A stretch of DNA of 64,000 nucleotides from an uncultured Lachnospiraceae bacterium (GTDB taxonomy: Bacteria > Bacillota > Clostridia > Lachnospirales > Lachnospiraceae), in assembly GCA_949484645.1 (NCBI GenBank), contig CASYOT010000002.1, forward strand, positions 2,912-66,911, read 5' to 3'. A program made the translations under genes and the position numbers. Shown in pieces: positions 3-48,845 of this stretch (positions are counted from its first letter, which is position 1; each line of letters begins with the position of its first letter). The notes under the pieces were generated by a model, which was given only the letters and a program-made list of their open reading frames with translations, was not told the DNA's origin and did no database searches.

Positions 3-173
3 TTAGACAACGTATCTGAGAATACACAGGCAGCAGAATCCCGTATCCGTGATACAGATATGGCTTCTGAAATGGTAGAATACAGCAAGAACAACATTCT
101 TGCGCAGGCTGGACAGTCTATGTTAGCTCAGGCAAACCAGTCAAATCAGGGTGTATTATCATTGTTACAGTAA
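3..173 (+). CDS. flagellin, C-terminal fragment (gene starts upstream of window)
   Basis: Frame-3 translation ...[46 protein letters not shown] matches the conserved C-terminal D0 helix of Hag/FliC flagellins; stop at 171-173. Confidence 0.9.
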
Positions 174-426: not shown

Positions 427-464
427 ACAAAAAAATATTGCTGGGCAATATGGAGGGGTATAGT

Positions 465-806
465 ATGGAGGAATTTTCAAATTTATTGTGGCACAATATT
501 GAAATTGTTCAGTGCATTTGTAATAAAATCGAGAATCAGGAAGCGTACATTGAGGATATTCGGGGATACCTTCCTTCTCTTAATCAAATGATTACATCAA
601 TATTTACAAATATGCAGCAAGGGCAAATTTCTTTGGAATTGAATCAAGGCTTTATTATTCAGGCGCTAAATGATATTCTATATGGAATAGAAAATGAAGA
701 TTCTGTATTTTTGCTTGATGTATTGCGATATGGGTTATTAGAAATTTATGGATACATAAGTAGTGAACTGCAAAGTGAGGGCTGTTATGAATCAGTTAAT
801 ATATAA
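465..806 (+). CDS. hypothetical small protein (113 aa), first gene of island
   Basis: ORF with GGAGGGG RBS 7 nt upstream of ATG 465; overlaps the Maf-like gene start by 20 nt, which suggests translational coupling; no recognisable domain. Confidence 0.45.
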   Translation: MEEFSNLLWHNIEIVQCICNKIENQEAYIEDIRGYLPSLNQMITSIFTNMQQGQISLELNQGFIIQALNDILYGIENEDSVFLLDVLRYGLLEIYGYISSELQSEGCYESVNI

Positions 807-2685
807 AAAAAATCTGGAGGCGTTAAATGCGAAATATCCTATATGGGCGGCTCTTATAGACGGGGTAAAACGTAAAAAACGAAATTTCAATGTTGAAGCA
901 GAGCAGAGTTTCATGGGAGAAACTATTTTGAAAGTAACTCAAGATGGGAAAATGCGTTACTTAAATGGAAAATATGCTCCTTCGGCAGTAGTGGAACGTT
1001 GGTTTGAAAAACAGGGAAAAATAGAAGAATACGCGCCAATTGTGATAATAGGCATTTCAAATGGAGAACATATACGACAAATTATAGAACGCTCCCCAAA
1101 GACTTCTAATATTTTAATTTATGAGCCATCTTTTGAATTATTCCGCAGGGCGATGCAAGAAGTGGATTTAACATTTCTTTTTGAGATGGATATTCCGGTA
1201 GGGATTATTGTTGAGGGATTAAATGAAGATGAGTTAGAAGCTTTCCTTTATTTATTTATATCTTATGACAATATGGCTTTTCTTCGGTGGTATATTTCAG
1301 GGAATTATCAGGAATTATTTCCAAAAGAAGTGGAAGAATTTGTAGGACGTTTAAAGAATCATGTGTCACAAATCCATATTGGCTGGAATACAAAATTACG
1401 TTATACAAATGTCAGGGCAGTAAATGTATTTGTCAATCTGCCATATTTAGCAGATGGATACAGCATTCGGGAATTGTATGGAATGCTTCCGGAAGACGTT
1501 CCGGTTATTGTCGTTTCAGCAGGCCCATCTTTAAATAAAAACATTATGGAATTGAAAAAAGCAGTCGGGAAAGCCTGTATTATTTCAACAGATACTGCGA
1601 TAAAGCCTCTCTTAAATGCAGGAATCGTGCCGAATTTCTTTATTATTATAGATGGGTTAAAGCCGGAAGTGCTATTTCAACATAAGGATATATCTAAAGT
1701 TCCTATGGTGACTATGACGGCGGTTTCCACAGAGCCGATGTCATGCCATAAAGGGAAAAAATTCTTTTATGGCGCGGAGTCTGCATTTGAAGATGAACTT
1801 ACGGGAGATATAAAGAGGAGCCGTGACGAAGACAGTGACAGAGTGATACCGTTTCTTGTAACTGGCGGTTCTGTTGCGACTTCGGCATATGCGCTGGGTT
1901 TAAATATGGGAGCTAAGACAGTGATATTAGTGGGTCAGGATCTTGCAATGACCGGGAATAAAACGCATGCAGACGGTACATTTCAGGCGCAGATGGATCA
2001 GATTGACAAAAATAGCGGCGAATACTTTGAAGTGGAAGCTATAGATGGCGGCAAGGTTTTGACGAGACTTGATTTTGATATGTACCGTAAATGGTTTGAA
2101 GACCATTTTAAGCAGTGGAATCATGTCACAGTCGTAGATGCGACAGAAGGCGGAGCATTAATTCATGGAACGAAAGTAATGACTTTAAAAAAGGCAGTTC
2201 AAAAATATTGTGTGCATGAATTTAATGTAAAGTGGCATACGGATCGCTGCAAAAAATTATTTCAAGATGAACAGCGGGAAGTTGTGTTGGATTATTTTGC
2301 AAATTCCCTAAAAAAATTACAGGAAGTGAAGAAAAAAGCGACAGAAGGGATTCGTTTCTATGAACGTCTGGAGAAGATGGCGAAAAAAAGCTCGGTATCA
2401 GATCAGGAGCTTGGAAAGGCTTTGAAAAAAATCAAGAAATTAAATCATTATATGGAAACTGACTATATGGCGCGCACTGTTATGGATAGTTTAGATGGTC
2501 TAAATTTTACGTTAAGGCCGCTTGCTTATCAATTAAGAGAGGATAAACGGAGCGAGCTTTTAGATGTGGCTAGTCAGGGAAAAGTGCTACTTTACGGGGT
2601 GGCAGTTGCAGTAGATGAAGTATCTGAGATAGCGGAAAAGACGATTGTGCAGTACGCCAATTCCAACAGGACGAAACGGAAATAA
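787..2685 (+). CDS. Maf-family (motility accessory factor, DUF115/MptE-like) putative flagellin nonulosonic-acid glycosyltransferase
   Basis: N-terminus MNQLIYKKNLEALNAKYP resembles the Maf N-terminal signature; VIVVSAGPSLNKN matches the DUF115 GPSL motif; about 630 aa, typical Maf length; located next to flagellin. Confidence 0.7.
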   Translation: MNQLIYKKNLEALNAKYPIWAALIDGVKRKKRNFNVEAEQSFMGETILKVTQDGKMRYLNGKYAPSAVVERWFEKQGKIEEYAPIVIIGISNGEHIRQIIERSPKTSNILIYEPSFELFRRAMQEVDLTFLFEMDIPVGIIVEGLNEDELEAFLYLFISYDNMAFLRWYISGNYQELFPKEVEEFVGRLKNHVSQIHIGWNTKLRYTNVRAVNVFVNLPYLADGYSIRELYGMLPEDVPVIVVSAGPSLNKNIMELKKAVGKACIISTDTAIKPLLNAGIVPNFFIIIDGLKPEVLFQHKDISKVPMVTMTAVSTEPMSCHKGKKFFYGAESAFEDELTGDIKRSRDEDSDRVIPFLVTGGSVATSAYALGLNMGAKTVILVGQDLAMTGNKTHADGTFQAQMDQIDKNSGEYFEVEAIDGGKVLTRLDFDMYRKWFEDHFKQWNHVTVVDATEGGALIHGTKVMTLKKAVQKYCVHEFNVKWHTDRCKKLFQDEQREVVLDYFANSLKKLQEVKKKATEGIRFYERLEKMAKKSSVSDQELGKALKKIKKLNHYMETDYMARTVMDSLDGLNFTLRPLAYQLREDKRSELLDVASQGKVLLYGVAVAVDEVSEIAEKTIVQYANSNRTKRK

Positions 2686-4887: not shown

Positions 4888-5496
4888 AATAATCGCTTCT
4901 TTCTGATAATTATTTATAATGTATTAGTATATCACAGGAGTATAGCATGTAACAAGAATTTTTTGTAATGATTCCTGTTATTGATTTCTGTTATAAATAA
5001 TAGAAATGGTTAGAATGAAATAATTCGTAAATGATTGTATTTAATATGTATAAAGTTAAATTAAGGATAAGCCGATAAAAAGAATAAGAGTTAAATTGCG
5101 TTTTCTATCAGCATGGAAGCTGTATTTTATTCAGGGAGGAAGAAGAAATGACGAAAAGGAAAGACATGCAGCGAAAAATTGCATGGGGGGGGAAAATCAG
5201 AATCTACTAAAAAGTGGAAAAAAATTCAAACTTTATATGGATTATCTCAAGAGACGTTAGGGGCAATTTTTTTGTTGCCTTTTTTTTGGTGTCTGCCGTT
5301 TGATCCGGTTATGGCTTGTAAAGGATATAAGTGTGTTGGGATAAGAATGGATAAGAATTGTTGGAAGGACGCCTATGTTTGAAACAAAGACAGCATGGGA
5401 AACGCAGTGAATATACTACAATTCTTTTTTTGCGTTTTATAACATTTTTTGCAACAGAAGATAATATGCCAAAATAGCTGGGAAGAAGGAATTAAA

Positions 5497-7077
5497 ATGA
5501 ATTTAGAAGCTGAATTTGAACGGTTAAAAACATGTTCCCGTATTTTGATTTGGGGCGGCGGTTATCATACGAAAGAGGCGCTAAGGTTTTATAAATCTTT
5601 TTTTAGGGAACGGGACATACAGATTGTAGATAAGAATAAGGCAGGCCAAAGCATAGAAGGATATAAAATTATTGCTTCAGATGAAGCAGATTATTCGATT
5701 GATTATGTTGTGATTATGTCGTCAATATACCATGATGAAATTGAATATGCTTTGCGGAACAGACATGGTTATCAAGGGGCAGTGATAGGTTTATATGCGT
5801 TTCGGAGAGTTCTTTTAAAACTGGATTCATATGAAGAATGTATTGGGCATATGGAAGATTTTGTGTCTCATATGGAACAAGGCATAGCAAGTTATTCTTA
5901 CGACTATATATTTCAAGAAAACTATAGCGTATATAAAAAAATAAGGCTATATGCGTTTTGGGCGTCTTCTATTGGTGAATCAGTCCGGTATTTATCGGCA
6001 TATTATGAAACTGTTTTTAAGGATAAGGCAGAAGATGAATACTGCCTGTTAATTCCCTATATAAAAGGGAATGATTTCGCGAATGGGCAATTTATAGAGG
6101 TTGTTTCCCGTACAGTTCCTATGGTTACATATTGCAACTGTCATTTTTGGGAGTATGCGGTGAAAAAGTACAGAGAGCGTTTTGATTTGACGTCTTATAA
6201 TGAATTTAACGGTATTTTAGTGGATGCATATAATCAATTTGATGAACGGATTATAAACAGGACGTTTTGTGATAAAAAGTTTCCTTTGATTGCCTATACG
6301 CCGGAAGAACGTAAGATGGCGGAATATAAATTAAGGCAAATGGGCGTTTTTGGAGATTTCGTGTGTATATTTGCAAGAGATAACCACTATTTGCAGCATC
6401 AGTATGGACAGGCTTATGGAATTAATGAAATAAGAAATATGGATATCAATTCTTTTAAATCTGCAGTGGATTATTTGGAGGGACAGGGAGTAAAGGCAGT
6501 CCGCATGGGAAAAGTTGTCAACGGGCCGGTCAATCTGCCAAACTGCATAGATTATGCGGCGGATTTCCATAGCGACTTTATGGATTTATATTTATGCGGT
6601 AATTGCAAGTTTTATGCAGGGAGTTTGTCTGGGATTGTTGCGCTTGCCCAGCTTCAAAGCGCGCCTGTGGTTTTGCTCGGGGTGGTTCAGCTGGGGATTC
6701 ACAATTCAATACCATATAGGAGCAGAGATATTTACGTCCCAAAGAAAATATATGACAAAAATAAGAAACGTTTTTTAAATTTTACGGAAATATGGGATGC
6801 GGAAATGGCCGCTAAGGACAAAATATCAAAATATTATGGGGAACACGGGCTTGAGTTTATAGAGCTTGGCAAAGAAGAAATAAAAGAAGCGATAGTGGAG
6901 ATGAACGATAAATTAGATGGAGTGTATCAGGAAGACGAACAGGAAAAAGAACTTCAAAAGAAATATCATTTGCTGTTGGAAAACTGGATATTAGAGAATG
7001 GATACCAGTATTCTTATTTCTTGCATATTGACATAAGCGGCAGTTTTATTAAAAAGAATACATTTATGCTTGCATAG
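5497..7077 (+). CDS. hypothetical protein with PglD_N-like Rossmann N-domain and large uncharacterised C-terminal domain (possible transferase)
   Basis: Start chosen at MNLEAEF with GAAGGA RBS (track start 5449 also possible); N-terminal RILIWGGGYHTKEAL...IVDKN resembles the N-domain of paralogs at 26583, 28033 and 30528; no confident family. Confidence 0.4.
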   Translation: MNLEAEFERLKTCSRILIWGGGYHTKEALRFYKSFFRERDIQIVDKNKAGQSIEGYKIIASDEADYSIDYVVIMSSIYHDEIEYALRNRHGYQGAVIGLYAFRRVLLKLDSYEECIGHMEDFVSHMEQGIASYSYDYIFQENYSVYKKIRLYAFWASSIGESVRYLSAYYETVFKDKAEDEYCLLIPYIKGNDFANGQFIEVVSRTVPMVTYCNCHFWEYAVKKYRERFDLTSYNEFNGILVDAYNQFDERIINRTFCDKKFPLIAYTPEERKMAEYKLRQMGVFGDFVCIFARDNHYLQHQYGQAYGINEIRNMDINSFKSAVDYLEGQGVKAVRMGKVVNGPVNLPNCIDYAADFHSDFMDLYLCGNCKFYAGSLSGIVALAQLQSAPVVLLGVVQLGIHNSIPYRSRDIYVPKKIYDKNKKRFLNFTEIWDAEMAAKDKISKYYGEHGLEFIELGKEEIKEAIVEMNDKLDGVYQEDEQEKELQKKYHLLLENWILENGYQYSYFLHIDISGSFIKKNTFMLA

Positions 7078-8188: not shown

Positions 8189-8238
8189 TATCCGTTTATT
8201 CCAATAGGAGAATAAATTTTAAGAGTTAGGAGAGAACG

Positions 8239-9989: not shown

Positions 9990-9994
9990 CAAAA

Positions 9995-11104
9995 ATGGAG
10001 TCAGAAAAATTAATATTAGACGGCAGTAAAGTATTATGGCACAAAGATAGAATAGAGCAATGGAAAAGGGGGGAGCGTTTTGCGCCTGTTACGATTGATT
10101 GCGCGCTGACTACGAAATGCAGTTACCGCTGTGTGTATTGTTATGGAAAAATGCAGTGCATAAACCAGTCGGATAATCTTGACGAAGAAACAATTTTACG
10201 CTTTTTAGAGGATGCGGCGGAAATAGGAGTAAAAGCGGTTAGTTTTGTAAGCGATGGAGAAAGCACATGTAACCCACATTTGAAAAAAGCGGTTTTACAT
10301 GGCAAGAGCCTTGGATTAGATATGGCTCTTGGCACAAATGGCTTTTTGTTAAAAGATGAGGAATTAGAGGAAATTTTGCCGGCGCTTACTTATCTGCGTT
10401 TTAATATATCGGCTGGGGAGAGGGAACGATATGCCGAAATTCATGGCTGCGCCTTAAAATGCTATGATAAAGTAATTGAAACGATGAAAAAAGCGGTAGA
10501 TATTAGGGAGAAGAAAGATCTGGCGGTTACAATTGGAATGCAAATGGTTTTAATGCCGGATTTTGCAGATCAGATTCTTCCGCTTACAAAGTTAGGCAGA
10601 GAGATTGGCGTGGATTATCTCGTGATTAAACATTGTAGTGATGATGAGGAAGGCACGCTTGGCGTAAATTACGAAAAATATGATGCCGTGATTCCGGTTT
10701 TAAAGGAAGCGGAAACTTATTCTACGGATAAGTATCAGGTTTCGGCAAAATGGTCAAAGATTTTAAGCCATGGGAAGAAAAGTTACTGTAAGTGTTTTGG
10801 AGCCCCCTTTATTCTTCAAATGTCGGGTACGGGCCTTGTGGCTCCTTGTGGAATGTTTTTCAATGAGAAATACAGTAAATACCATATTGGAAATATTAAG
10901 GAAAAGAGATTTAAAGAGATATTTGAAAGCGACAGGTATTGGGAAGTTATGAAAATGATAACAGACGAAACTTTTGATCCAAACCGCGATTGCGGTACGC
11001 TCTGTCTTCAGCATAAAACAAATGAGGCATTGTGGAAGATCTATCAAACAGGGACAATTCCAAAGAGTCCGGAAATTGAACCGAATCATATTAATTTTAT
11101 ATAA
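9995..11104 (+). CDS. radical SAM enzyme (paralog B of 7127..8188)
   Basis: CSYRCVYC CxxxCxxC motif; aligns along its length with the 7127 protein (KRGE..P..IDCALT..C.YRC..C, shared C-terminal ...INFI); start set to ATG 9995 for better RBS spacing (track 9986). Confidence 0.8.
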   Translation: MESEKLILDGSKVLWHKDRIEQWKRGERFAPVTIDCALTTKCSYRCVYCYGKMQCINQSDNLDEETILRFLEDAAEIGVKAVSFVSDGESTCNPHLKKAVLHGKSLGLDMALGTNGFLLKDEELEEILPALTYLRFNISAGERERYAEIHGCALKCYDKVIETMKKAVDIREKKDLAVTIGMQMVLMPDFADQILPLTKLGREIGVDYLVIKHCSDDEEGTLGVNYEKYDAVIPVLKEAETYSTDKYQVSAKWSKILSHGKKSYCKCFGAPFILQMSGTGLVAPCGMFFNEKYSKYHIGNIKEKRFKEIFESDRYWEVMKMITDETFDPNRDCGTLCLQHKTNEALWKIYQTGTIPKSPEIEPNHINFI

Positions 11105-11143
11105 ATTTCAGAAATCTGGAAAAATAAGCATGGAGGCTGAAAA

Positions 11144-12673
11144 ATGGCACTTGTTGTGACAAAAGCGGAATTTAGGAATATAAGAAAGGAATTGCGGGCG
11201 GAAGGGAAGAAAGTGGTTCTCTGCCATGGCGTATTTGATTTAGTGCATCCCGGCCATATCATTCATTTTGAAGAAGCAAAAAAGATGGGGGACGTTTTAG
11301 TGGCGTCTGTCACGGCGGCAAAATATGTGAGAAAAGGTCCGGATAGGCCGTATTTTGGAGATGAGATGCGTCTGAAATTTTTATCTTCGATTGCGTATAT
11401 TGATTATATTCTTTTGTCAGAGGGCTTTACTGTAGATGATATTATTGAAGCGGCGGAGCCGGACTTGTATGTAAAAGGCTCGGAGTATCAGGCGCAAGAA
11501 GATGACATTACCGGAAAGATTGCCGGAGAAATAGAGCTGGTCCGTAAACATGGAGGGGAAATTGCTTATACAGGCGGGCAGGTGTTTAGTTCAACGAAAC
11601 TAATCAACCATGCTTTTCCATCACTTTCTGAGGAAGTGAAACAATTTATGAAATCATTTTCAGATAAGTATAGTTTATCTGAAATCAGAGCGCTGGCGGA
11701 AAAAATTTCGGGCTTTAAGATAGCGGTAATTGGAGACGTAATTATAGATGAATATATTTATTGCAATGTACAGGGGTTAATGTCGAAAGACAGGGGATAT
11801 TCTGCCCGTTATAGATATGTGGAGCAGTATTTAGGCGGTTCGTTAGCCGTGGCGAGGCATATTGCCTCATTTTGTGACGACGTCACTCTTTTGAGCGTTG
11901 TAGGGAAAGAGGAGGCGGTACATAGCCGGATGTTAGACGAACTTGGCGATAAGATGAGGATAGACGTAACGTTTAGCGATGTTTTTGAAACCATTATAAA
12001 AACACGGTACGTTTCCATGAATGAAAAACGGGAAGAGCTTGATAAAATTTTCGCTGTAAATAACCTTCCTGTATATATGCGCATTGATAAACCTGCATTA
12101 GATAAGTTTAAAGAAAAAATAAAAGAGAAAATAGAACAGTGTGACGTGGTTATTTTGTGTGATTTTGGGCATGGGCTGATAGATGAAGAAGTGATGGATT
12201 TGATTCAGTCTAAGGCGAAGTTTTTAGCGTTGAACTGCCAGACTAATTCATCGAATTATGGAAAAAATTTAATTACAAAATATAAACGGGCAGATGTATT
12301 TGCGATTGACCAGAAAGAATTGGGGCTGGCATTTGCGAATTACCGTTTAGATGAGCAAGAGCTTCTTCAGAAGTTAGAAAAACATTTGGACTGCCATGGG
12401 TGGCTGACACAGGGATCCCAAGGGGCAGTTTCGATTGAAGATGGAGAAATAAAACATTGTCCGGCATTTGTTTTAAAAGTGAAAGACACCATTGGAGCAG
12501 GGGATGCGTTCTTTTCCATTGCAAGCTTATTTGCGGCAGCAGGCGCTTCCATGGAGATGGGAACATTTATGGGAAATATTGCGGGGGCATTGGCGACAAA
12601 TATCGTAGGAAACAAAAAAGGCATTGATAAAGTAGATGTACTGAAGTACGCTTCTACTTTACTTAATATATGA
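11144..12673 (+). CDS. bifunctional sugar-phosphate nucleotidyltransferase / PfkB-family sugar kinase (HldE-like with reversed domain order)
   Basis: N-terminal cytidylyltransferase-fold domain with the HxGH motif (CHGVFDLVHPGHIIHF), as in RfaE domain II; C-terminal PfkB ribokinase-like domain ending with the GAGDAF anion-hole motif; GGAGG RBS. Confidence 0.7.
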   Translation: MALVVTKAEFRNIRKELRAEGKKVVLCHGVFDLVHPGHIIHFEEAKKMGDVLVASVTAAKYVRKGPDRPYFGDEMRLKFLSSIAYIDYILLSEGFTVDDIIEAAEPDLYVKGSEYQAQEDDITGKIAGEIELVRKHGGEIAYTGGQVFSSTKLINHAFPSLSEEVKQFMKSFSDKYSLSEIRALAEKISGFKIAVIGDVIIDEYIYCNVQGLMSKDRGYSARYRYVEQYLGGSLAVARHIASFCDDVTLLSVVGKEEAVHSRMLDELGDKMRIDVTFSDVFETIIKTRYVSMNEKREELDKIFAVNNLPVYMRIDKPALDKFKEKIKEKIEQCDVVILCDFGHGLIDEEVMDLIQSKAKFLALNCQTNSSNYGKNLITKYKRADVFAIDQKELGLAFANYRLDEQELLQKLEKHLDCHGWLTQGSQGAVSIEDGEIKHCPAFVLKVKDTIGAGDAFFSIASLFAAAGASMEMGTFMGNIAGALATNIVGNKKGIDKVDVLKYASTLLNI

Positions 12674-12711
12674 TGATTCTAAAGATATATTTATAAAATG
12701 GAGGGTAAGAA

Positions 12712-14352
12712 ATGAAGATTTTGTTGGTGGTTCCGCAATACTATAGCCGGAAAGAACGATATTATCAAATGCCATTAGGCTTAGCGTATGTGAATGCAGC
12801 TCTGCGGGAAGCAAATTTAGATGTGCAATGCCTGAATATGAACCATATTGAAGCAGAAGACGCCTATTCAGTTTTAGCTGAACGGGTAGTAAATTCCAAT
12901 ATTGACGTTGTCCTTTGCGGCGGAATAAGCCCGCTTTGGAAAACGATTGAAAAAGTGTTTGATACAGTTAAAAGGGCAAAAGCTTCCATAATTACTGTGG
13001 GGGGGGGTGGAGCCTTTACGTCGGAGCCTCTTATTTCAGCGGAACTTCTTGAAGTAGATTATGCTGTAATTGGAGAAGGGGAGATTACAGATGTAGAGCT
13101 TATTCAAACGTTGATGGCGAATCAGAATGTAAGCAATGTAAAAGGAATTGTATATAAAACGCCGGACGGATATAGGCAGACGGCTCCGAGGGAAGAAATT
13201 GCCGATGTGGATTCCATTCCATTTCCATGCTATGAGGGGTTTGACATGGATTTATATTTAGAAAATCAAATGGTGAGCGATGAATATTATTCTTTTTATT
13301 CGGACAAGCCGAGAATTATGCCGATGATTTTAGGCAGGTCATGCCCTTATCAATGCAAATTTTGTTTTCACCCTATAGGAAATAAATACAGGGTGCGAAG
13401 TCTGGATAATTTTTTTATGGAACTGGATCAATGGAAGAATAAGTATGCTCCAACCTGTATTTTGATATTAGATGAATTATTTAGCGCAAGCGTTGAAAGA
13501 GTGTATGAGTTTTGTGAAAGAATAAAAGGATATGAGATAAAATGGATTGTCCAAATGCGGGTGGATATTATCACGAAAGAGTTATTGCAGACAATGCGGG
13601 ACGCCGGATGCCTCAGCATCAGTTATGGACTTGAAAGTTTTAGCCCTGCAGTTTTGAAAAATATGAGAAAACATATCTCTTTAGCAGACATAGAAAACGC
13701 TTTAAAATTGACTTATGAAGCAAAAATAGACATTCAGGGCAATTTTATTTTTGGAGACGAGTTAGAAAATGAGCATACGATATATGAAACATTGCGGTTT
13801 TGGTTTCAGCATCCAGAATATAAAATTAATTTGGGGTGGATAGAGACATATCCGGGATGCGGCTATTATCAGGAATTATCAAAAAATTGGAGCGTTGAGG
13901 AGAAAAAAGCATTTTTAGAAATGAGTGAATGGCTGACAAATTTAACAAAGATGCCAGATGAAGAATATGGGAAATATAAAGTTGTGATTCAACTGCTTAC
14001 ATTTTATTATAACCCAGATTGTGTGAAAGAAAAAGAGACGCGGACAGACGAAAATGGCGATGGGATTATTGAAGCGAAGTGCGTGCATTGCGGTTCGGTA
14101 AATCGGTGGGCAGGAGTTAAAAAATATCTGCTAAATCAATCGTATTTTAAATTATGCTGCCGGAAATGCAATCATAGGAATGTGATTTACAGCAGGAAAG
14201 AAAGGTTAAAAAATTGGGATTTAATTCTGCCATTATGTGAGAAAATGGCTTTGGCAACAAAGGAAGATGAATTTATTAAAGCGGTAAACGCTTTATATGA
14301 GACGTATATGGTGACGCATGACCCAGAAAATCCATTTCCTGTTTTGTTTTAG
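12712..14352 (+). CDS. B12-binding (class B) radical SAM enzyme, putative sugar C-methyltransferase or related
   Basis: N-terminal B12-binding-like region (MKILLVVPQYY...PLGLAYVNAAL) followed by CPYQCKFC radical SAM motif; 546 aa; contains an in-frame G9 tract at 12999..13007. Confidence 0.75.
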   Translation: MKILLVVPQYYSRKERYYQMPLGLAYVNAALREANLDVQCLNMNHIEAEDAYSVLAERVVNSNIDVVLCGGISPLWKTIEKVFDTVKRAKASIITVGGGGAFTSEPLISAELLEVDYAVIGEGEITDVELIQTLMANQNVSNVKGIVYKTPDGYRQTAPREEIADVDSIPFPCYEGFDMDLYLENQMVSDEYYSFYSDKPRIMPMILGRSCPYQCKFCFHPIGNKYRVRSLDNFFMELDQWKNKYAPTCILILDELFSASVERVYEFCERIKGYEIKWIVQMRVDIITKELLQTMRDAGCLSISYGLESFSPAVLKNMRKHISLADIENALKLTYEAKIDIQGNFIFGDELENEHTIYETLRFWFQHPEYKINLGWIETYPGCGYYQELSKNWSVEEKKAFLEMSEWLTNLTKMPDEEYGKYKVVIQLLTFYYNPDCVKEKETRTDENGDGIIEAKCVHCGSVNRWAGVKKYLLNQSYFKLCCRKCNHRNVIYSRKERLKNWDLILPLCEKMALATKEDEFIKAVNALYETYMVTHDPENPFPVLF

Positions 14353-14369
14353 GAAAAGGATTTCCGCCA

Positions 14370-15068
14370 TTAAATTGTGACATTAAAGTATTGTTGGGCC
14401 TTACAGTATTTTTTCTGCCTGTTTCTGATTAAGACACTGCCGTCAGGGTTACGCAGCACAACGGAATCATCGGAGACCGGCTGTCCATATACAAACGCAT
14501 CTACTCCAATGGATACACGGTTTCCGATTGGTTCATTGCCTATAATTTTAGCTCCGGCGGCTAAGTAGAGCCCTTTTCCGAGTTTTGGGACAGTTTCGCC
14601 GACAGGGCTTTCACCGGTATTGATGGTGACATTTTGGCCTATTACAAGAAAATCACTGTAAGCTGCATTGCCAATTACGCTTCCTACCGGATGTGTAAGG
14701 AAGAATATTTCCGGCAGTTTGCCTTTGTAAGAGATAAAAAAACTATGTAAAGTTTTATTCAAGTAAATTAATTTGTCACAGACAGATTTGTTTGCGGAAA
14801 GCTCCCACAGTGAGTTAGCCCAAAAATATAAAAACTGGGCATACTGGTCAGAATGCAGATGCGAGAAAAATGTTTCGCCTTGGTTATCTGAATATGCGGA
14901 ATTTTTAATAAAACGGAAGCAATGCTCTGTCCGTTCTAAGGCGCGTTCAAAAGCGGCGTCAACGTCGCTGCCTTTTAGAGTATGAGTATTGCGATCCGGA
15001 AAAAAAAGCTCTAACTGATGCAGCGTATATGTTTGAAGTTCTTGTTTCGGTAATGATAGGTTCATTTC
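14370..15068 (-). CDS. hexapeptide-repeat (left-handed beta-helix) acetyltransferase, serine-acetyltransferase-like
   Basis: C-terminal LbH repeats (VIGQNVTINTG...AGAKIIGNEPIGNRVSIGVDAFV) preceded by a helical N-domain as in CysE-like O-acetyltransferases; start set to the internal MNLSL with GGAAG RBS (track start 15182). Confidence 0.65.
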   Translation of the reverse strand, partial: EMNLSLPKQELQTYTLHQLELFFPDRNTHTLKGSDVDAAFERALERTEHCFRFIKNSAYSDNQGETFFSHLHSDQYAQFLYFWANSLWELSANKSVCDKLIYLNKTLHSFFISYKGKLPEIFFLTHPVGSVIGNAAYSDFLVIGQNVTINTGESPVGETVPKLGKGLYLAAGAKIIGNEPIGNRVSIGVDAFVYGQPVSDDSVVLRNPDGSVLIRNRQKKYCKAQQYFNVTI

Positions 15069-16033
15069 TTCTTCCTTTTTTGAATATAAATTGGCTCTAA
15101 AATAAAACGTGGGAGAATTGCGTATGGCCATACATGGAACCATATCGTAGGATATTTGTATGTATTTAAAAATAATATCCATTTATCGTCCATATCATAC
15201 TGATTATCCTCTACGCTGTATTTTAGGATAGAATCTTTAATAAATCCTTTCATGTCAGTAAGAAAGATTTTTTTCATCTGGCTTTTTGGAAAACCGGCTT
15301 TTACGGCTGTTTGGAGCAAAAGTCTTTTATATTGCTTTACCCAGACTTCAAATAAATTAAATCCGCCGCTGTTATTATTTTTTGCGGCTAAATAGGGGGC
15401 TTTTGTCAGGATCATTTTAGTATTTTTGCCTGAGAGAATGTGAAATACGATATGCGCGTGTAGAAAATGGGTTCCAAAATATTTCTCAGGATGCTTTATT
15501 TGTTTAAATTTGCTCATTTTCAGAACGGTTGCAGATATATACGTTACATAAACGCCAATGTAATTCATCAGAAGGGTTTTATCGTAAGTAATCAGATCGT
15601 TTGTTTCCCTAAGTTTTATTCTTGGCGCTTTTCTAATGTCCGGATTGAATGTCTGTGTTGAATATGTAAAAGAATTTATATTAATATAGGCTGGTCTTTC
15701 TGTTTTTATCAGATATAATATTTTTTTTATCGCTCCGGGCAGCAATATGTCATCGTCCGAGAGAAACTGTATATATTCGCCGTTCGCTTTTTGGAAACAG
15801 TTAAAAAAATTTTTATCCATACCCAAATTTTTTGAATTACGATAATAACGTATCTTATGTTCTTTGCAATATTTTTTCATTACTTTTGGGGTCTCGTCTG
15901 TGGAAGCGTTATCTGATACAAGGATTTCAACGCCGTCTTCCAACTGCCCTAGCGCGCTTTCTAATGACTGGCATAATAAATGACAGCGGTTATAGGTAGG
16001 GATAGCGACTGTCAGTATAATTTTTTGTCCCAT
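15062..16033 (-). CDS. family 2 glycosyltransferase (GT-A fold)
   Basis: IPTYNRCHLLCQSLESALGQ...VSDNASTDET...DDD motifs typical of GT2; start set to MGQKIIL with RBS (track start 16138 overlaps the upstream gene). Confidence 0.8.
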   Translation of the reverse strand: MGQKIILTVAIPTYNRCHLLCQSLESALGQLEDGVEILVSDNASTDETPKVMKKYCKEHKIRYYRNSKNLGMDKNFFNCFQKANGEYIQFLSDDDILLPGAIKKILYLIKTERPAYININSFTYSTQTFNPDIRKAPRIKLRETNDLITYDKTLLMNYIGVYVTYISATVLKMSKFKQIKHPEKYFGTHFLHAHIVFHILSGKNTKMILTKAPYLAAKNNNSGGFNLFEVWVKQYKRLLLQTAVKAGFPKSQMKKIFLTDMKGFIKDSILKYSVEDNQYDMDDKWILFLNTYKYPTIWFHVWPYAILPRFILEPIYIQKRKKK

Positions 16034-16037
16034 GATC

Positions 16038-16970
16038 TTACCTCTTTCTTTTGGTTTCATAATACTGGATTGTTTTTTGGATGCCTTCTTCAAAGGGAAT
16101 TTCAGGCTTCCAGCCGGTATCTCTTGTAAGAGGTTCAATATTGATACAAGAACTTGGCATTATGCCGGGGGAGCTGATTTTTCTTTCGGGAGGGGGAGTT
16201 TTTTCTCCAATGCCTAAAGGAAGCGATGGGTTTATCATGTCCCGAATAGTTAAGACGTATTCCCGAAGTGTTTTGTGCGTTCCGCTTCCTATTCCATATG
16301 TAATATTATGCCTGCCTTTCTCTCCAATTTTAATAATTGCTTTTGCTACATCTGATACATAGACAAAATCCCAATTAGACTGGAGATTGCCATAGACAGG
16401 GTATTTGCCATCTAAAAGAGTGGTAATCGTATAAGTCAGGATATTGTCTTCTGTTCTTCCTTCCCCATATGTGCTTGGAAGAACAGTCCAAATCATATCC
16501 TGCCCTAATTGCGCGGCAACGGCTTCTAACAGATAGTGGACGGAAGTTTTTGTGGCTCCATAGATGTCAATGGGCGTCTGTTTCCTTGAAAAATCAATGA
16601 CGCATACATTATAAACATATTCTGCCACTGTGCCTGCGGCCAGAAATAGTTTGCATTTTAAATATTTAGAGAGACGTAACATATCCAGAGAAGTTTCGAT
16701 ATTGCTTAATTGCAAAGGAATGTTGTTTTTTTCTTTCCCAGAAACGCCTGCCCAGCCAAGATGATAAAATATATCATATGTTTTTCCAGACAGCCTTTGC
16801 GCCAGTTCTTTAAATTGATAGCCGGCAGTTATTGTTTTTACGGAAGAATTATGAAATGGCATAGAGGAGGGGGAGGAGGTCAGGACGGTTACGTTAGCGC
16901 CTGATTTTAATAATTCCGCAACAACATATCTGCCGATAAATCCGGTTCCTCCTGTAAGAATGGCTTTCAT
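16038..16970 (-). CDS. NAD-dependent epimerase/dehydratase family (SDR) sugar reductase/epimerase
   Basis: MKAILTGGTGFIGRYVVAELL Rossmann motif; YGATK catalytic YxxxK; 310 aa. Confidence 0.75.
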   Translation of the reverse strand: MKAILTGGTGFIGRYVVAELLKSGANVTVLTSSPSSMPFHNSSVKTITAGYQFKELAQRLSGKTYDIFYHLGWAGVSGKEKNNIPLQLSNIETSLDMLRLSKYLKCKLFLAAGTVAEYVYNVCVIDFSRKQTPIDIYGATKTSVHYLLEAVAAQLGQDMIWTVLPSTYGEGRTEDNILTYTITTLLDGKYPVYGNLQSNWDFVYVSDVAKAIIKIGEKGRHNITYGIGSGTHKTLREYVLTIRDMINPSLPLGIGEKTPPPERKISSPGIMPSSCINIEPLTRDTGWKPEIPFEEGIQKTIQYYETKRKR

Positions 16971-22641: not shown

Positions 22642-22938
22642 CATTTTATTTTGTTCTAAAGTTTCTATAGGAAATATCCGATATATATTTATAGCAGTGA
22701 TTTCGGGCGTATTGTAAAAACCCAAAAATCATGGGGGGGGGGGGTAAACAGAATGAATAATTTTGTTTTGGATCGTTTTTCCAATTATATAAATAAAGAG
22801 TTTTGTATTGCCCTTCCGGGTGGTTTTTCAAAGAATTATTACTGGGCATCTATGATGCGTAAATAAAAAGTTGACATTTGCCAACTTTTTTGTTTTATAG
22901 AACACAAGTAAAATTAAGAAGGGGATGAAGGGCTTTTA

Positions 22939-24654
22939 ATGGGAAATAGAATATTAGATTATGCTTGTGAACAGTTTGAGAGCCGTAATTATTGTGAAGC
23001 GTTGGAAGCGTTTGTTTTAGCTTATATGAAAGGTTATGAGCCGGAATGGGTGATTGAAAACATTTATAATTGTTATGTGGCTTGTAATGAGCCGGAATTT
23101 CGCAATGCTTATGGAAAGTGTGGGGCAGAGGTAAGCTATGAGGATTGCGTGTTGGACTTTATGCCTTATAAAGAAGGGGAATATTATATTTTTGATAAAG
23201 AGCGAAAGCAATTTATTGGAAAGTTCTTAGTTTCAGAACTAAAGATGGTTTCATCAGAGGAAGCATTAAATGAAATCGAGTTTGGCGCGGTGGCGGAAGC
23301 GTTCCATTGGAATCTGAAGGAAGAATATCAACTGCTTGCGGCGGCAAAAGACAAGAAAGTGTATGCAGTCTGCCATGAAATCAATTATATTTCTTCCTTT
23401 TATAAAATACCGGAGTTAGAAGAATATAATAAAAATGTGAAATTGTTTCAGGATTTCAGTCAGTTTCAGCAATATTTCCATAAAAATACGGGAGTTTATC
23501 TGCCCCGGATTTTGTCAGGGGATTTAGAGAGTGTAAAAGAATTAAATGAAATAGTTGAAGCGGAACATCAATTTAGATTAACTCCGGAGGGACGCAATAC
23601 AGATCACGTATTGCTTACGATTGGGATACCTTCACGGAATAGAGGGAATCTTTTGTTAAAACGGCTGGAAAATCTGCGGAACATAAAACTGGATGCGGAA
23701 ATTGAAATTGCAATTTCGAAAAACGGCGTGGATTTCTATCAGGAAGAATATGATCAAGTGAATCAGGCGCAGGATTCCAGAATTTGTTATTATGATCATC
23801 ATAAGGATTTGGTGGCGCCTGAGAATTGGCATTTTGTGGTAGAAATGGCGCATGGGAAGTTTGTATTGCTGGTTTCGGATGAAGATGACATTATTTTAGA
23901 TTCTTTAGGGCATTATCTAAAGCTGATAACGGAGTATCCGCAAGCGAGTGTGATAAGGGCAAAGTCCTGCATATTTTATTCACGTTTATCGGAAAGATTG
24001 TATGCGGAAGGGACGGATGCATTAAAAAAAGGATTTTTGAAGCAAAATTATTTGTCAGGGTTGATTTTTAACAGGGAAAAGTTTCTAAAGCAAAATTTGC
24101 TGCGGTTAGAAAAATTCCGGGAAGATAATTTATATTATTGCCTGTATCCGCATGAGTGGTGGTGCGCCATTTTGTCAAAAAACGGCGTTTATATGGAAGA
24201 ACCGTTTTTGTTGGTTCAGGAACGTGAGTCTGTGATTCAGGAAGAAAACTCAAAATATATTGAAAAAGGAGTGATAGAAGAAGGAGAGCATATTGCAAAG
24301 GGAACAAGTCTGCCGGCGTATTCCACATATGAAAGCCGCTTACAGCAGTTTTTGGGCATGATGGAATTTGTGCGTTGGATTGCAGATGGGGATAAGGAGC
24401 TTGCTTTTTTTTGCGTTGCAAGTTGTATAAGTAAAATTTTATTTCTATTGCTGCTGGCAAGGGAGAGGGGGTATGAAGTCTCAAACTTTATGAATATAGT
24501 TGATAAATTTTGCAAAATGTCTATTGAAGCAATCCGTGAGTTTGATTTTTCTGAGGAACAGCAAGTGAAGTTATTATCAATATTAAAAACAAGCGCAATA
24601 GAAACATATGGGCAAGAGAGGGAGATTTTTGAAAAAGAACAGAATGCAGGATAG
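22939..24654 (+). CDS. large GT2-domain protein (paralog 2 of 20956..22641)
   Basis: Aligns with paralog 1 over its whole length (EALEAFVL..M..Y...I.NIY.CY......F...YG.C; GIP..NRGNL; LLVSDED; HEWW); AAGGGGATGAAGGG RBS. Confidence 0.55.
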   Translation: MGNRILDYACEQFESRNYCEALEAFVLAYMKGYEPEWVIENIYNCYVACNEPEFRNAYGKCGAEVSYEDCVLDFMPYKEGEYYIFDKERKQFIGKFLVSELKMVSSEEALNEIEFGAVAEAFHWNLKEEYQLLAAAKDKKVYAVCHEINYISSFYKIPELEEYNKNVKLFQDFSQFQQYFHKNTGVYLPRILSGDLESVKELNEIVEAEHQFRLTPEGRNTDHVLLTIGIPSRNRGNLLLKRLENLRNIKLDAEIEIAISKNGVDFYQEEYDQVNQAQDSRICYYDHHKDLVAPENWHFVVEMAHGKFVLLVSDEDDIILDSLGHYLKLITEYPQASVIRAKSCIFYSRLSERLYAEGTDALKKGFLKQNYLSGLIFNREKFLKQNLLRLEKFREDNLYYCLYPHEWWCAILSKNGVYMEEPFLLVQERESVIQEENSKYIEKGVIEEGEHIAKGTSLPAYSTYESRLQQFLGMMEFVRWIADGDKELAFFCVASCISKILFLLLLARERGYEVSNFMNIVDKFCKMSIEAIREFDFSEEQQVKLLSILKTSAIETYGQEREIFEKEQNAG

Positions 24655-35937: not shown

Positions 35938-36845
35938 AACTTTGTTTAGGGACTGTCCAACAGGGATTGGAATATGGGATTAATAATAAGTATGGAAAGC
36001 CTTCAAAAGAGTATAGCCAAAAAATCTTTTACGAAGCGGTAAAGCATGGGATTACAATGTTTGATACGGCAAGGGCATATGGAGATGCAGAATTGCTTTT
36101 GGGGGAATATTTAAAAGAACATGGGAATCGAAATGAAATCAAGATCATATCAAAACTCCGTCCGAACATACTAGAAGGTTGTAAGGATATATACGATACG
36201 ATATGCCGGGAATGTGAAGGCACTTTAAAGCGGATAGGCGTAGAATCCTTAGACGGATATTTGCTCCATACGCCGGAGTACATCCGAGATCCCAAAGTCG
36301 TTTCGGCTCTTTTAAAATTAAAGGAGGAGGGATATGCTTCGCATATAGGCGTATCCATTTACAATATAGAAGACGGGGACGTTGCAATCAATACGGGGGC
36401 AGTTGACTATATACAGCTTCCTTTTAGCATATTTGACCAGCGCGGAAAAAACAGCGGATTTCTCCGGCGGGCAAAAGAAGCCAAAATTACGGTATTTGCA
36501 AGAAGCATATTTTTGCAGGGATTGTATTTTATGGATGCGGGCAGTCTGCCGGAAAAAGTGAAACGGGCAGAGCCTATGCTGCGGAACTGGGAGCTGATTT
36601 TAGAGGAGCGTCACGCCAATCGGGAAGAAGTCTTAATTGAATTTGTGAAACAGTCCAAAGAGATTGATTATCTTGTGTTTGGAGTAGACACAGTGGAACA
36701 GTTACAAAGAGATATTTCTGTATTCGAAAGCGAAAGTAAATTAGATGAAACTATTTGGAACATAATCGGAGAAAAATTTTCCGATGTGGAGGAAAGCATT
36801 ATAATACCAAGTTTATGGGCGAAACAAGAAAGGAAGGGAAAATGA
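35934..36845 (+). CDS. aldo/keto reductase family oxidoreductase
   Basis: MKLCLGTVQQG...FDTARAYGDAELLLGEYL and IGVSIYN AKR signatures; ATGA overlap with the upstream stop. Confidence 0.75.
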   Translation: MKLCLGTVQQGLEYGINNKYGKPSKEYSQKIFYEAVKHGITMFDTARAYGDAELLLGEYLKEHGNRNEIKIISKLRPNILEGCKDIYDTICRECEGTLKRIGVESLDGYLLHTPEYIRDPKVVSALLKLKEEGYASHIGVSIYNIEDGDVAINTGAVDYIQLPFSIFDQRGKNSGFLRRAKEAKITVFARSIFLQGLYFMDAGSLPEKVKRAEPMLRNWELILEERHANREEVLIEFVKQSKEIDYLVFGVDTVEQLQRDISVFESESKLDETIWNIIGEKFSDVEESIIIPSLWAKQERKGK

Positions 36846-37544
36846 TGGGAGCAAAAAACATTTTTTTAACGACAGAAGGGGACGCATGGTATAGGAGAAA
36901 CCGTGAAAAGTTAGAAGAAGAAAGTGGATTTTCGGCGGTGGATTTAATGATTGATTTTCTAAATAGACAAAAAAAATCTCTGGGGGGGGGTAAATGGCTT
37001 TTCGTGGGATAAGCTGAATATTTTGGAAATCGGGTGTAGTTATGGATATAATCTGGCAAAGTTTTGCGAATCATTTTCTTGTCAATGTTATGGAATTGAA
37101 CCGTCAAAAGAAGCGGTAGAAGATGGAAATAGAAGATATAAGGATCTGCCAATTCAATTAACTCAGGGAACAGGGGATCTTTTGCCGTATGAGGCGGAAT
37201 CTATGGATGTGGTTATAATGGGATTTTGCATGTTGTGGATGGAGCGGAAAGACATATTGCAGGCATACGCGCAAGCAGACAGAGTTTTGAAAACAAATGG
37301 GATTATGATGGTTTATGATTTTGATGCGAAAATGCCATATCTTAGGGATAATATCCATAATAGAGAAGTGTTTACATATAAAATGGATTATGCGCAGCCG
37401 TTCATGGCTTTTCCAAACTATTATTTAATGGATAAGACCGTATTTTGCCATATGGGAAATTTTTTTGACAAAAGAATACAGGAAAGAATATCTTTGCAGA
37501 TTTTATATAAAGAGTCTTTGGAGGATGCGTATAGGAAAGGATAA
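36842..37544 (+). pseudogene. SAM-dependent methyltransferase, frameshifted at an A8-G9 homopolymer (candidate phase-OFF copy)
   Basis: Two consecutive ORFs (36842..37006 and 37023..37544) together align to the intact paralog 37571..38266 (about 85% nt identity); the reading frame breaks at the G9 tract 36982..36990; an 8-G version restores ...SLGGVNGFSWDKLNILEIGCSYGY.... Confidence 0.7.
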
Positions 37545-37570: not shown

Positions 37571-38266
37571 GTGGAGGCAAAGGAGATATTCTTAACGACA
37601 GAAGGGGACGCATGGTATAGAAGAAATCGTGAAAAACTGGAAGAAACAAAAAATTTTATTGCGGCAGAGATAATCATAGAATTTTTAAACAGACAAAAGA
37701 GCGGTATGGGAATGAATGGCTTTGCATGGGAGCGTTTTAAGATTTTAGAAGTCGGATGCAGTTATGGTTATCATTTGGCAAAGTTTTGTGAAGCGTTTCC
37801 CTGCCAGTGCTATGGAATTGAGCCGTCAAAAGAAGCGGTGGAAGACGGCAGTCATAAATATAAAGGCCTGCCTATGCAGTTAGTTCAGGGGACAGGTGAT
37901 TCTCTGCCATATGAAGCGGAATCTATGGATATTGTCATTATGGGGTTTTGTATGTTTTGGATGGATAGAAATCATCTGCTGCAGGCGTATGCGGAAGCGG
38001 ACAGGGTCTTAAAACCAAAGGGATTGCTTATAATTTATGATTTTGACACGAAGCTTCCCTATGTCAGAGACAATGCGCACAGTAAAGATGTGGATACATT
38101 TAAAATGGATTATGCAAAAGCGTTGACGGCTCTGCCGCATTATTACTTAATGGATAAAACGGTGTTTTGCCATAAAGGAAATTATTTTGATGAAGATATA
38201 CAGGAAAGGATTTCCATGCAGATTCTTTATAAGGAGGATTTCAAAGATGCATATATCAGAGGGTGA
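37571..38266 (+). CDS. class I SAM-dependent methyltransferase (intact tandem paralog)
   Basis: ILEVGCSYGYHLAKF motif I and VIMGFCMFWMD; 231 aa; GTG start at 37571 as in the track, with no in-frame ATG before it. Confidence 0.65.
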   Translation: MEAKEIFLTTEGDAWYRRNREKLEETKNFIAAEIIIEFLNRQKSGMGMNGFAWERFKILEVGCSYGYHLAKFCEAFPCQCYGIEPSKEAVEDGSHKYKGLPMQLVQGTGDSLPYEAESMDIVIMGFCMFWMDRNHLLQAYAEADRVLKPKGLLIIYDFDTKLPYVRDNAHSKDVDTFKMDYAKALTALPHYYLMDKTVFCHKGNYFDEDIQERISMQILYKEDFKDAYIRG

Positions 38267-40386: not shown

Positions 40387-41427
40387 ATGGAAATGAAAAT
40401 GTATCAGCTTATGAAAGAGCGCGCCTATGTAATTGCGGAAATGTCGGCAAATCATGCGGGCTCGAAAGAAACCGCGGTAAAACTAATTCATGCAGCGAAA
40501 ATGGCGGGAGCGGACTGTGTGAAAATACAGACTTACACGGCGGATACGATGACGTTAGATTGTGATAACGCATATTTTCATATTGGAGATGGGACATGGA
40601 AAGGCGATACACTGTATTCTTTGTATGAAAAAGCGTATATGCCATGGGAATGGCAGGCGGAATTAAAGGAGGTCACAGAGACATTAGGCATGGATTTTTT
40701 GTCCACTCCATTTGATAAGACGTCGGTGGATTTTTTGGAAAGCCTTGACGTGGCGGCGTATAAGATTGCATCGTTTGAGCTGACAGATCTTCCGCTGATT
40801 CAGTATGTGGCATCGAAAGGAAAACCGGTGATTCTGTCGACGGGCATGGCGGAGTTGTATGAAATAGACGAAGCTGTAAAAACAATCCAGAGGGAACATA
40901 ATTCTCAAATTATTTTAATGCACTGCGCAAGCGCGTATCCGGCGATTACAGAGGATATGAATTTGTATACAATGCAAAATCTAAAAGAGGTTTATCAAGT
41001 TCCGGTCGGGCTGTCCGATCATTCCATGGGTTCTGTCGGAGCCATTACAGCGGTGGCGTTAGGCGCGCAAATTATTGAAAAACATTTTTGCCTTGACCGG
41101 GCCATTGAAACGCCGGATTCCTCATTTTCCATGAACCCTGCTGAGTTTCGGCAGATGGTATGTGACATACGGCAGGCGGAAAAAGCGTTAGGATCGGTCC
41201 GGTATGGGGTGAAAAGCCAAGAAAATCCAAATCTTGGCTTTAGGAGGTCTATTTTTGTCACCCAAGACATTAAAAAGGGGCAGAAGCTGACAGAAGAAAA
41301 TATCCGGGTGATTCGGCCGGGATATGGGGCGCCGCCTAAATTTTATGGGGAAGCCTTGGGACAGACGGCTTTAAGTGACCTGAAAAGAGGCACACCTCTT
41401 AAGATTTCGGATATAGGAAGTGTGTAA
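40387..41427 (+). CDS. pseI: nonulosonic acid synthase, NeuB family (pseudaminic acid synthase candidate)
   Basis: YVIAEMSANHAGSKETAVKLIHAAKMAGADCVKIQTY NeuB N-terminal TIM-barrel signature and C-terminal SAF domain (IFVTQDIKKGQKLTEENIRVIRPG); syntenic with pseG/C/H. Confidence 0.8.
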   Translation: MEMKMYQLMKERAYVIAEMSANHAGSKETAVKLIHAAKMAGADCVKIQTYTADTMTLDCDNAYFHIGDGTWKGDTLYSLYEKAYMPWEWQAELKEVTETLGMDFLSTPFDKTSVDFLESLDVAAYKIASFELTDLPLIQYVASKGKPVILSTGMAELYEIDEAVKTIQREHNSQIILMHCASAYPAITEDMNLYTMQNLKEVYQVPVGLSDHSMGSVGAITAVALGAQIIEKHFCLDRAIETPDSSFSMNPAEFRQMVCDIRQAEKALGSVRYGVKSQENPNLGFRRSIFVTQDIKKGQKLTEENIRVIRPGYGAPPKFYGEALGQTALSDLKRGTPLKISDIGSV

Positions 41428-48185: not shown

Positions 48186-48845
48186 ATGAATGATATTATC
48201 CTAATCGGCTCTGGAGGCTGTATGCGGGAGCTGGTCTGGCAGATACAGCAGTTGAACGGGGAATGCCGTGTATGGAATATTTTAGGCTATGTTGACAAAG
48301 CCGATCGGTCCGGCGTTTCCGACATAAAAGTTTCCGGCCAGAGCATTCCCTATCTTGGCGGAGATGACTTCCTTTTACGCCGGACCGAACAGACGAATGC
48401 CGCTATATGTGTCGGGAATCCTTCCTTACGGAAAAAAATTGCCAAGAACATACAGAAAAACCCGCATATCTGTTTTCCTAATTTAATTTTAGGCAATGTA
48501 AAAATCTGCTCTGACGTACAAATCGGGAAAGGCTGTATTATCAGTATGGACGCCCGTATTTCTACGAATGTTGCATTGGGGGATTTTGTTTTTTTAAATA
48601 TGGGAAGCGGGATCTGCCATGACGGAAAAATTGGAAATTATGTCACATTAAGCCCAGATGTGCGTCTTGCCGGAAACGTAACCGTGGAAGAAGGCTGTGA
48701 CATTGGCATGGGAGCAAAGATTATACAGGGCAGGCATATCGGCGCAAATGCAGTGATCGGGGCAGGAAGCGTCGTCATCACTGACATAGCGGCTGGCTGC
48801 ATGGCGGCCGGCGCGCCGGCAAAGGAGAAGAAGAAAAAAATATGA
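48186..48845 (+). CDS. NeuD/PglD-family hexapeptide sugar N-acetyltransferase (LegH-like)
   Basis: N-terminal Rossmann-like ILIGSGGCMRELVWQI...LGYVDKAD followed by LbH repeats (GNYVTLSPDVRLAGNVTVEEGCDIGMGAKI). Confidence 0.75.
   Translation: MNDIILIGSGGCMRELVWQIQQLNGECRVWNILGYVDKADRSGVSDIKVSGQSIPYLGGDDFLLRRTEQTNAAICVGNPSLRKKIAKNIQKNPHICFPNLILGNVKICSDVQIGKGCIISMDARISTNVALGDFVFLNMGSGICHDGKIGNYVTLSPDVRLAGNVTVEEGCDIGMGAKIIQGRHIGANAVIGAGSVVITDIAAGCMAAGAPAKEKKKKI

Follow-up and report, generated by a model that had tools for sequence, protein, structure and literature searches.

The stretch of DNA analysed here, called the window throughout, comprises 64,000 nucleotides of an uncultured Lachnospiraceae bacterium (assembly GCA_949484645.1, contig CASYOT010000002.1, positions 2,912 to 66,911 of the forward strand). 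It carries a homopolymeric tract of nine G residues (G9) at 12999..13007 on the plus strand, read directly as GGGGGGGGG, inside a gene for a B12-binding radical S-adenosylmethionine (radical-SAM) enzyme of 546 amino acids at 12712..14352 (+). The original prediction gave these coordinates exactly, and the tract lies in frame within the open reading frame (ORF). Counted from the ATG, the tract codons are GTG GGG GGG GGT GGA, which encode V96-G97-G98-G99-G100. The resulting peptide, ...ITVGGGGAFT..., belongs to the B12-binding domain, and its glycine run presumably matches the "GG" element in the classical fingerprint of cobalamin binding. The window allele is in frame and is thus ON, while near-identical assemblies have G7, G8, G9, G10 or G11 at the same place.

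Judged by its domains, cluster motif and ORF layout, the 546-amino-acid product is a class B radical-SAM protein, with an N-terminal B12-binding domain and a radical-SAM core with the CxxxCxxC motif. The B12-binding domain (PF02310) covers residues 19-130 and scores 46.7 bits against a Pfam cut-off of 32.1, and the Radical_SAM domain (PF04055) covers residues 205-363 and scores 62.3 bits against a cut-off of 29.5. The CxxxCxxC [4Fe-4S] motif reads CPYQCKFC, and its cysteines C211, C215 and C218 are invariant across 35 homologues. Class B radical-SAM enzymes are mostly methyltransferases, and cyclases and ring-contracting enzymes are also found in the class.

A change of one base in the tract truncates the protein early, as had been claimed for a cut after about 100 residues. 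The in-silico G8 allele gives a product of 114 amino acids and the G10 allele one of 112-113, and genes called on naturally occurring contigs with G8 or G10 show the same truncations. Out-of-frame lengths split the gene into a first part of about 113 amino acids and a second of 413, and any length that does not differ from 9 by a multiple of 3 truncates the enzyme before most of the catalytic core. The second part is a C-terminal remnant ORF with a TTG start at 13111..14352 (+), called when the tract is out of frame, and it is devoid of the B12-binding domain. The remnant of the window allele is listed in 33 blocks. The radical-SAM gene is the last of a plus-strand run from 7127 to 14352, and a convergent minus-strand gene starts at 14370. 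Owing to this position, a frameshift in the tract should lack a polar effect.

Loci of the same species were found by exact look-up of the upstream protein and of the truncated products. Two loci, L083 and L084, have an identical set of 13 single-nucleotide polymorphisms (SNPs) when compared with the window; the gene is intact in L083, where the tract is G9, and L084 has G8 on the same background and a gene split into 114 and 413 amino acids. Four loci found through the 413-amino-acid remnant (L087-L090) have G10 on the window's own haplotype, and in two of them (L087 and L088) the tract is the sole difference from the window over positions 11600-16100. Two further truncated alleles yielded 16 additional loci. 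The tract comprises G7 in 3 loci, G8 in 6, G9 in 4 with the window included, G10 in 11, and G11 in 1. Haplotype A, that of the window allele, contains G9 and G10, haplotype B contains G7, G8, G9, G10 and G11, and haplotype C contains G8 and G10. The occurrence of several lengths on each of three SNP haplotypes indicates that the changes are recurrent. The original prediction had asked whether the length is invariant across isolates, and it is not, with G7 to G11 in same-species assemblies of several SNP haplotypes.

Contigs of nearly equal size differ in the same way: SRR15129751 has G8, SRR15129794 has G7, and SRR15129618 has G11. The tract is G10 in ERR12869686, ERR12869688 and ERR12869689, and G8 in ERR12869691, ERR12869700 and ERR12869779. 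The neighbouring run accession numbers of these SRR and ERR contigs suggest shared studies. Sequences of the species are present in ENA, Logan and NCBI data, and a scan of Joint Genome Institute (JGI) metagenome contigs with the tract flanks and a variable gap gave no match. The best species-representative matches are metagenome-assembled genomes (MAGs) of uncultured Lachnospiraceae at 73-74% identity, some of them from mouse-gut catalogues. Proteins identical to those of the window have the NCBI label "MAG: Eubacterium sp."

The protein collection contains both forms of the enzyme. In its 90%-identity cluster, 546-amino-acid forms occur on 300 contigs and 413- or 412-amino-acid forms on 110, and both alleles, ON and OFF, are appreciably frequent. 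The control clusters of RibBA, the PseI-like synthase and the HldE-like enzyme are essentially all full length, with scattered contig-end fragments in addition. Runs of A or T of 6-8 bases were compared across all same-species loci, and among 644 comparisons a length change occurred at one tract only, a T8 at 15721. G runs of at least 8 in these loci varied in 26 of 31 comparisons. One assembly (L001) has zero substitutions relative to the window over 21.6 kb, and the G tracts at 5185 and 22733 are its only differences. The near-invariance of the A/T runs means that general homopolymer noise in assemblies does not account for the pattern, and general homopolymer error was rejected on this control. 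In a further MAG, GCA_948785075.1 (L002), a 7-bp deletion (ATGTTTG) is found at window positions 15029-15035, within the acetyltransferase-like gene at 14370..15182 (-), and a run of N is present at the place matching window position 7650. This deletion may be genuine, or it may be a defect of the MAG assembly.

The GGGG motif is conserved throughout the family. A G tract at the same motif is present in four other lineages of 55-75% protein identity, and three of these were caught OFF in at least one contig. Two related loci have G8 (L085) and G10 (L086) and are both OFF; their cluster comprises an ON form of 544 amino acids on 6 contigs and an OFF form of 432 amino acids on 6. A third (L112) has G8 and is OFF, and the ON form of 544 amino acids is present in the same cluster. 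The motif of L113 reads ATA followed by G7 and is OFF, and that of an Oscillospiraceae genome (L006) reads TGC GGG GGG GGG, a G9 in frame. L112 (GCA_037194105.1) also has a second G8 tract, at L112:124-131, in a gene of the Methyltransf_23 type immediately upstream of the frameshifted radical-SAM gene. This second tract suggests that the clade commonly has islands with more than one tract.

Another lineage (P0008/P0217, locus L118) has mixed codons at the motif, GTA GGT GGG GGC GGA, and a different tract 55 codons downstream. There the sequence ATG CAG GGG GGG GGG TAT encodes "MQGGGY", where the window has "TPDGY". This second-site tract occupies L118:1953-1962, codons 152-155, in a non-conserved loop, and was seen together with loci L114-L117. 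G10 is its ON length (545 amino acids, 31 contigs), and G9 or G11 is OFF (390 amino acids, 7 contigs). Apart from the tract indel, these contigs are identical or almost so. A tract-free orthologue (P0004/L003) is full length on 26 contigs, with no class of products of about 430 amino acids cut off just past the motif. Two independent tract positions in one gene, and the lack of truncated products of this class in the tract-free orthologue, fit selection on switchability better than an accident of codon use. The same radical-SAM gene thus appears to have acquired a poly-G switch twice, at separate codon positions.

The G9 run is best read as a simple-sequence contingency locus, in which slippage of the tract would switch the gene ON and OFF; a probability of roughly 80% is assigned to this reading. 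The stochastic switchability put forward in the original prediction is supported by the comparative data across assemblies. The G tract would slip by at least one base during replication, at a rate far above that of base substitution. The presence of several lengths on three haplotypes, and of different lengths in contigs of nearly equal size, would fit slipped-strand mispairing that is frequent and reversible. With G9 the frame is intact, and the full cobalamin-dependent radical-SAM enzyme would be made. With G7, G8, G10 or G11 a stop about 15 codons past the tract leaves a stub and at best the remnant, which would be inactive for want of its B12-binding domain. That the tract is kept or re-created in the same gene of several related gut Clostridia argues that switchability itself has been selected.

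The surroundings of the gene indicate what the enzyme may act on. The window begins with the 3' end of a flagellin gene at 3..173 (+), which by direct reading encodes the D0 C-terminal helix in frame 3 and ends at position 170, followed directly by a 122-amino-acid ORF at 438..806. A Maf-type (MptE-like) flagellin glycosyltransferase is encoded at 763..2685 (+) and matches PF01973 with 119.8 bits against a cut-off of 34.6. Its Maf_flag10_N match in Pfam is weak and below the cut-off, and its PseD match in NCBIfam is partial. After Maf come about 55 kb of sugar-nucleotide genes, with riboflavin and biotin genes at the end of the window. The island contains epimerases, a PseB-like dehydratase (Polysacc_synt_2), cytidine monophosphate (CMP)-transferases, DegT aminotransferases, acetyltransferases and glycosyltransferases. 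The flagellin end, Maf and the nonulosonic-acid genes together identify a flagellin glycosylation island.

The region 2766-36845 comprises four radical-SAM/SPASM enzymes, a split transketolase, two acetolactate-synthase-like thiamine pyrophosphate enzymes, an aldo-keto reductase, and several proteins that match no family. It also contains an HldE-like kinase/adenylyltransferase with SIS and HAD partners, of a heptose-type pathway. This rich sugar chemistry implies a complex and probably novel glycan beside the nonulosonic acids. Two NeuB-family synthases are present, at 40387-41427 and 48842-49831, each with its own cytidylyltransferase and aminotransferases, and the product of 40387..41427 is named pseudaminic acid synthase by NCBI. 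The two sets imply two separate nonulosonic-acid pathways, one Pse-like and one Leg/Neu-like. From its gene neighbourhood, the radical-SAM product would tailor a sugar that ends up on flagellin. Switching would then remove one tailoring step on the flagellin-glycan sugar, probably a methylation or another radical modification.

Three other G tracts of the island also vary in length, those at 5185, 22733 and 36982. The last of these is a G9 at 36982..36990 (+), which splits the gene of an S-adenosylmethionine-dependent methyltransferase (Pfam Methyltransf_11) at 36842..37544 (+), and by its reading frames this gene is OFF in the window. With G8 or G11 the product would have 233 or 234 amino acids and be colinear with the tandem paralogue at 37571..38266, which lacks a tract. 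Public data contain exact matches to both predicted ON proteins, on 39 and 7 contigs, and the OFF fragment of 173 amino acids is found on 345.

The two other tracts lie upstream of glycosyltransferase genes. A G8 at 5185..5192 (+), in a divergent intergenic region, is 12 codons into a small ORF with an ATG at 5148 and a strong ribosome-binding site, and precedes a gene of the TIGR04372 glycosyltransferase type at 5497..7077, as judged from its TIGR04372 match. G7 or G10 would give this small ORF 77 or 78 amino acids with a hydrophobic segment. The tract is G9 in L001; the contig counts are 186 for the 78-amino-acid G10 product, 120 for a 95-amino-acid form and 3 for the G7 product, and products that fit G7, G9 and G10 are all on record. 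A G12 at 22733..22744 (+) is intergenic, ends 8 nucleotides before the ATG of a 37-amino-acid ORF, and lies about 195 nucleotides upstream of a glycosyltransferase-like gene at 22939..24654. It is G11 in L001, L109 and L110, G13 in L002, and G12 in the window. Promoter scans around the G8 and G12 tracts found no -35/-10 pair that spans either tract, and around the G12 tract no promoter-spacer match.

The variable T8 of the A/T comparison, at 15721..15728, corresponds to an A8 on the minus strand in a GT2 glycosyltransferase gene at 15167..16138 (-), and the T7 allele truncates this gene. T8 and T7 alternate only within SNP haplotype B, and the site may represent either a poly-A switch or a pseudogene confined to one lineage.

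Several points weigh against the reading of the G9 run as a switch. Most species representatives encode the GGGG motif with mixed GGN codons (for example L003, L004 and L007). All the variation in tract length consists of differences between assemblies, and the sequenced loci are enriched for OFF alleles, since truncated products were the query. The sole unbiased counts are the 300 and 110 contigs of the protein cluster, and their units are contigs, which are not independent strains. G9, the ON length, is the majority state in these counts, and since it dominates, the OFF alleles could be transient deleterious variants. Synonymous-codon resampling of the same protein gives a G run of at least 9 in the radical-SAM gene in 6.4% of cases (P ~0.06). 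The role of the enzyme is also loosely placed. The protein reaches no equivalog in NCBIfam, where its best match is BchE at 130 bits against a cut-off of 481, and a PDB search gives distant matches, the best at 4e-14, mainly over the radical-SAM core.

The P- and C-methyltransferase models of NCBIfam score the protein below 100 bits, far under their cut-offs. These NCBIfam scores and the distant PDB matches place the protein in no characterised methyltransferase subfamily, and the "C-methylation" label of the original prediction is a guess, as no NCBIfam equivalog is reached.

The most serious alternative, though an unlikely one, is a non-adaptive hotspot. The conserved GGGG cobalamin-binding motif would simply be written with GGG codons, and the slipped alleles would be neutral or mildly deleterious in a gene that is decaying or dispensable. 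The composition of the window leaves room for this. It has 41.7% GC, with 26% G and 16% C on this strand, and GGG makes up 30% of the glycine codons in its genes. The distribution of plus-strand G runs is odd, with six G6, no G7, one G8, two G9 and one G12, and no C run of at least 6 is found on the plus strand of the window. Dinucleotide shuffles give a mean of 3.55 G8 matches against 10 observed, and 3 of 100 shuffles reach 10; synonymous resampling gives a G run of at least 9 somewhere in the coding sequence of the window in 27% of cases. The claim that such a tract is unlikely by chance was therefore overstated, as at P ~0.06 it is only mildly unusual. The argument from length was dropped, since neither shuffles nor resampling gave a significant improbability, and with compositional tests so weak the strong evidence for a switch is comparative. 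GC skew is positive throughout the window, and all its long G/C runs are G on the plus strand.

The comparative evidence is harder to fit to a hotspot. The ON majority, the mixed codons of many relatives, and the lineage-bound T7 allele of the GT2 gene, which resembles an ordinary pseudogenising mutation, are all as a hotspot would have them. Yet shorter and longer alleles recur on several haplotypes while ON stays frequent, which indicates back-and-forth change and not one-way decay. The motif tract recurs in the four other lineages at 55-75% protein identity, a further lineage has an independent tract in a non-conserved loop of this gene, and three more variable G tracts are found in the island. 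Purifying selection on a required enzyme would be expected to break the run synonymously, as in relatives. Mixed GGN codons in related genomes had been named beforehand as evidence against a switch. Many relatives do have them, but the four tract lineages, the second-site tract and the tract-free control keep this from refuting it.

It is very improbable that the lengths are an artefact, with homopolymers miscalled in short-read assemblies and a true tract that is always G9. The evidence does come entirely from assemblies, of which homopolymers are a known weak spot, and a contig, L111, starts some 90 bases downstream from the G12 tract (22733..22744), which places the tract just off the contig end. 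The same contigs, however, vary at a single site in the 644 comparisons of A/T runs. The same non-G9 lengths appear across record-name styles (NODE_, k107_, -scaffold_), Logan contigs and NCBI MAGs, and there are five length values, not a one-base scatter. Miscalling also fails to explain the exact predicted ON methyltransferase proteins on 46 contigs, or a tract-free orthologue that lacks the class truncated just after the motif. Slightly less probable still is recoding, in which transcriptional slippage or ribosomal frameshifting at the tract would let OFF genotypes yield the full enzyme, and DNA length would tune expression. Long homopolymers can make RNA polymerase slip, as is generally known mostly for A/T runs, but G runs are poorer sites of transcriptional slippage than A/T runs. 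A quadruplex needs more than a single G9 run. DNA slippage fully explains multiple lengths with clean frame consequences, and no result supports recoding.

With the contingency locus as the preferred reading, the tracts of the island may be considered together. Acting jointly, they would give a clonal population a mixture of flagellin glycoforms. A broader proposal is that gut Clostridia run a Campylobacter-style multi-locus "phasome" on the flagellin glycan. It would comprise 4-5 independently slipping tracts (the radical-SAM gene, the methyltransferase, GT2, and the two upstream or small-ORF tracts) with up to 16-32 glycoform states per clone. Selection on switchability would be so strong that sister lineages gained poly-G tracts at two different positions of the radical-SAM gene. 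The chances for and against this proposal are about evenly balanced. If true, it would add an unrecognised layer of immune or phage evasion in commensals, distinct from the invertons of Bacteroides.

In mouse and human Lachnospiraceae, flagellins act as TLR5 ligands and as immunodominant antigens, such as CBir1 in colitis and Crohn's disease, and host immunoglobulin A (IgA), T cells and TLR5 have Lachnospiraceae flagellins among their dominant targets. A stochastic flagellin glycan would, if real, bear on IgA coating, T-cell recognition, phage susceptibility and strain persistence. The tract also matters for annotation. About a quarter of the assemblies annotate the radical-SAM gene as two fragments, which MAG pipelines would score as a pseudogene or a "hypothetical protein". 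In addition, it offers a natural ON/OFF pair for assigning a function to a putative B12 radical-SAM sugar-tailoring enzyme.

Slipped-strand poly-G switches in flagellar glycosylation genes are a hallmark of Campylobacter. For Lachnospiraceae and the remaining gut Clostridia, a literature search found no such switch reported. In a 2026 survey of flagellar glycosylation in Clostridium, phase variation is raised only by analogy with C. jejuni, and glycan phase variation in commensals is mostly described through Bacteroides invertons (review PMC12355684). The surface glycans of gut Bacteroides vary by these invertons, for which phage and immune evasion have been proposed (PMC12355684; PMC11892184). 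The window resembles the Bacteroides systems in the stochastic switching of a surface glycan in a gut commensal. The mechanisms differ, with promoter inversion by site-specific recombination in Bacteroides and, as proposed here, slipped-strand mispairing in the window.

In protein glycosylation, Neisseria pgtA has a coding-region poly-G that toggles one pilin glycan modification, and the tract is present only in some strains (PMC2193922). The radical-SAM gene is similar in its poly-G within the coding region of a putative protein-glycosylation gene. It differs in the appendage (pilin in Neisseria, flagellin here), in enzyme class and in phylum.

The closest parallel is the flagellar glycosylation locus of Campylobacter jejuni (maf1, maf4, maf7, Cj1295 and others), in which intragenic poly-G/C tracts give ON/OFF switching and glycan heterogeneity (PMC13130089). 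The work of Hitchen et al. 2010 on Cj1295 is cited in PMC13130089 and PMC13317340. The Campylobacter analogy of the original prediction is apt, as the island comes right after the flagellin and Maf genes and has three further variable G tracts. Like the C. jejuni locus, it has several tracts clustered in one flagellin glycosylation island with Maf and nonulosonic-acid genes; two of its four G tracts are inside putative glycan-tailoring genes. C. jejuni is an epsilonproteobacterial pathogen without MutS/MutL-type repair, whereas the host here is an uncultured gut Clostridia of the Gram-positive type, known in this work from assemblies alone. A B12-binding radical-SAM enzyme is not known to be among the targets at the Campylobacter locus. 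The enzyme itself resembles class B cobalamin-dependent radical-SAM enzymes, such as the P- and C-methyltransferases, HpnR, BchE and CysS, in its B12-binding domain and CxxxCxxC core. Unlike characterised class B enzymes, it has no equivalog-level match, and its gene sits among sugar and flagellin glycosylation genes. The mechanism is thus already known, and the phylum, the ecology and the targeted enzyme class are new.

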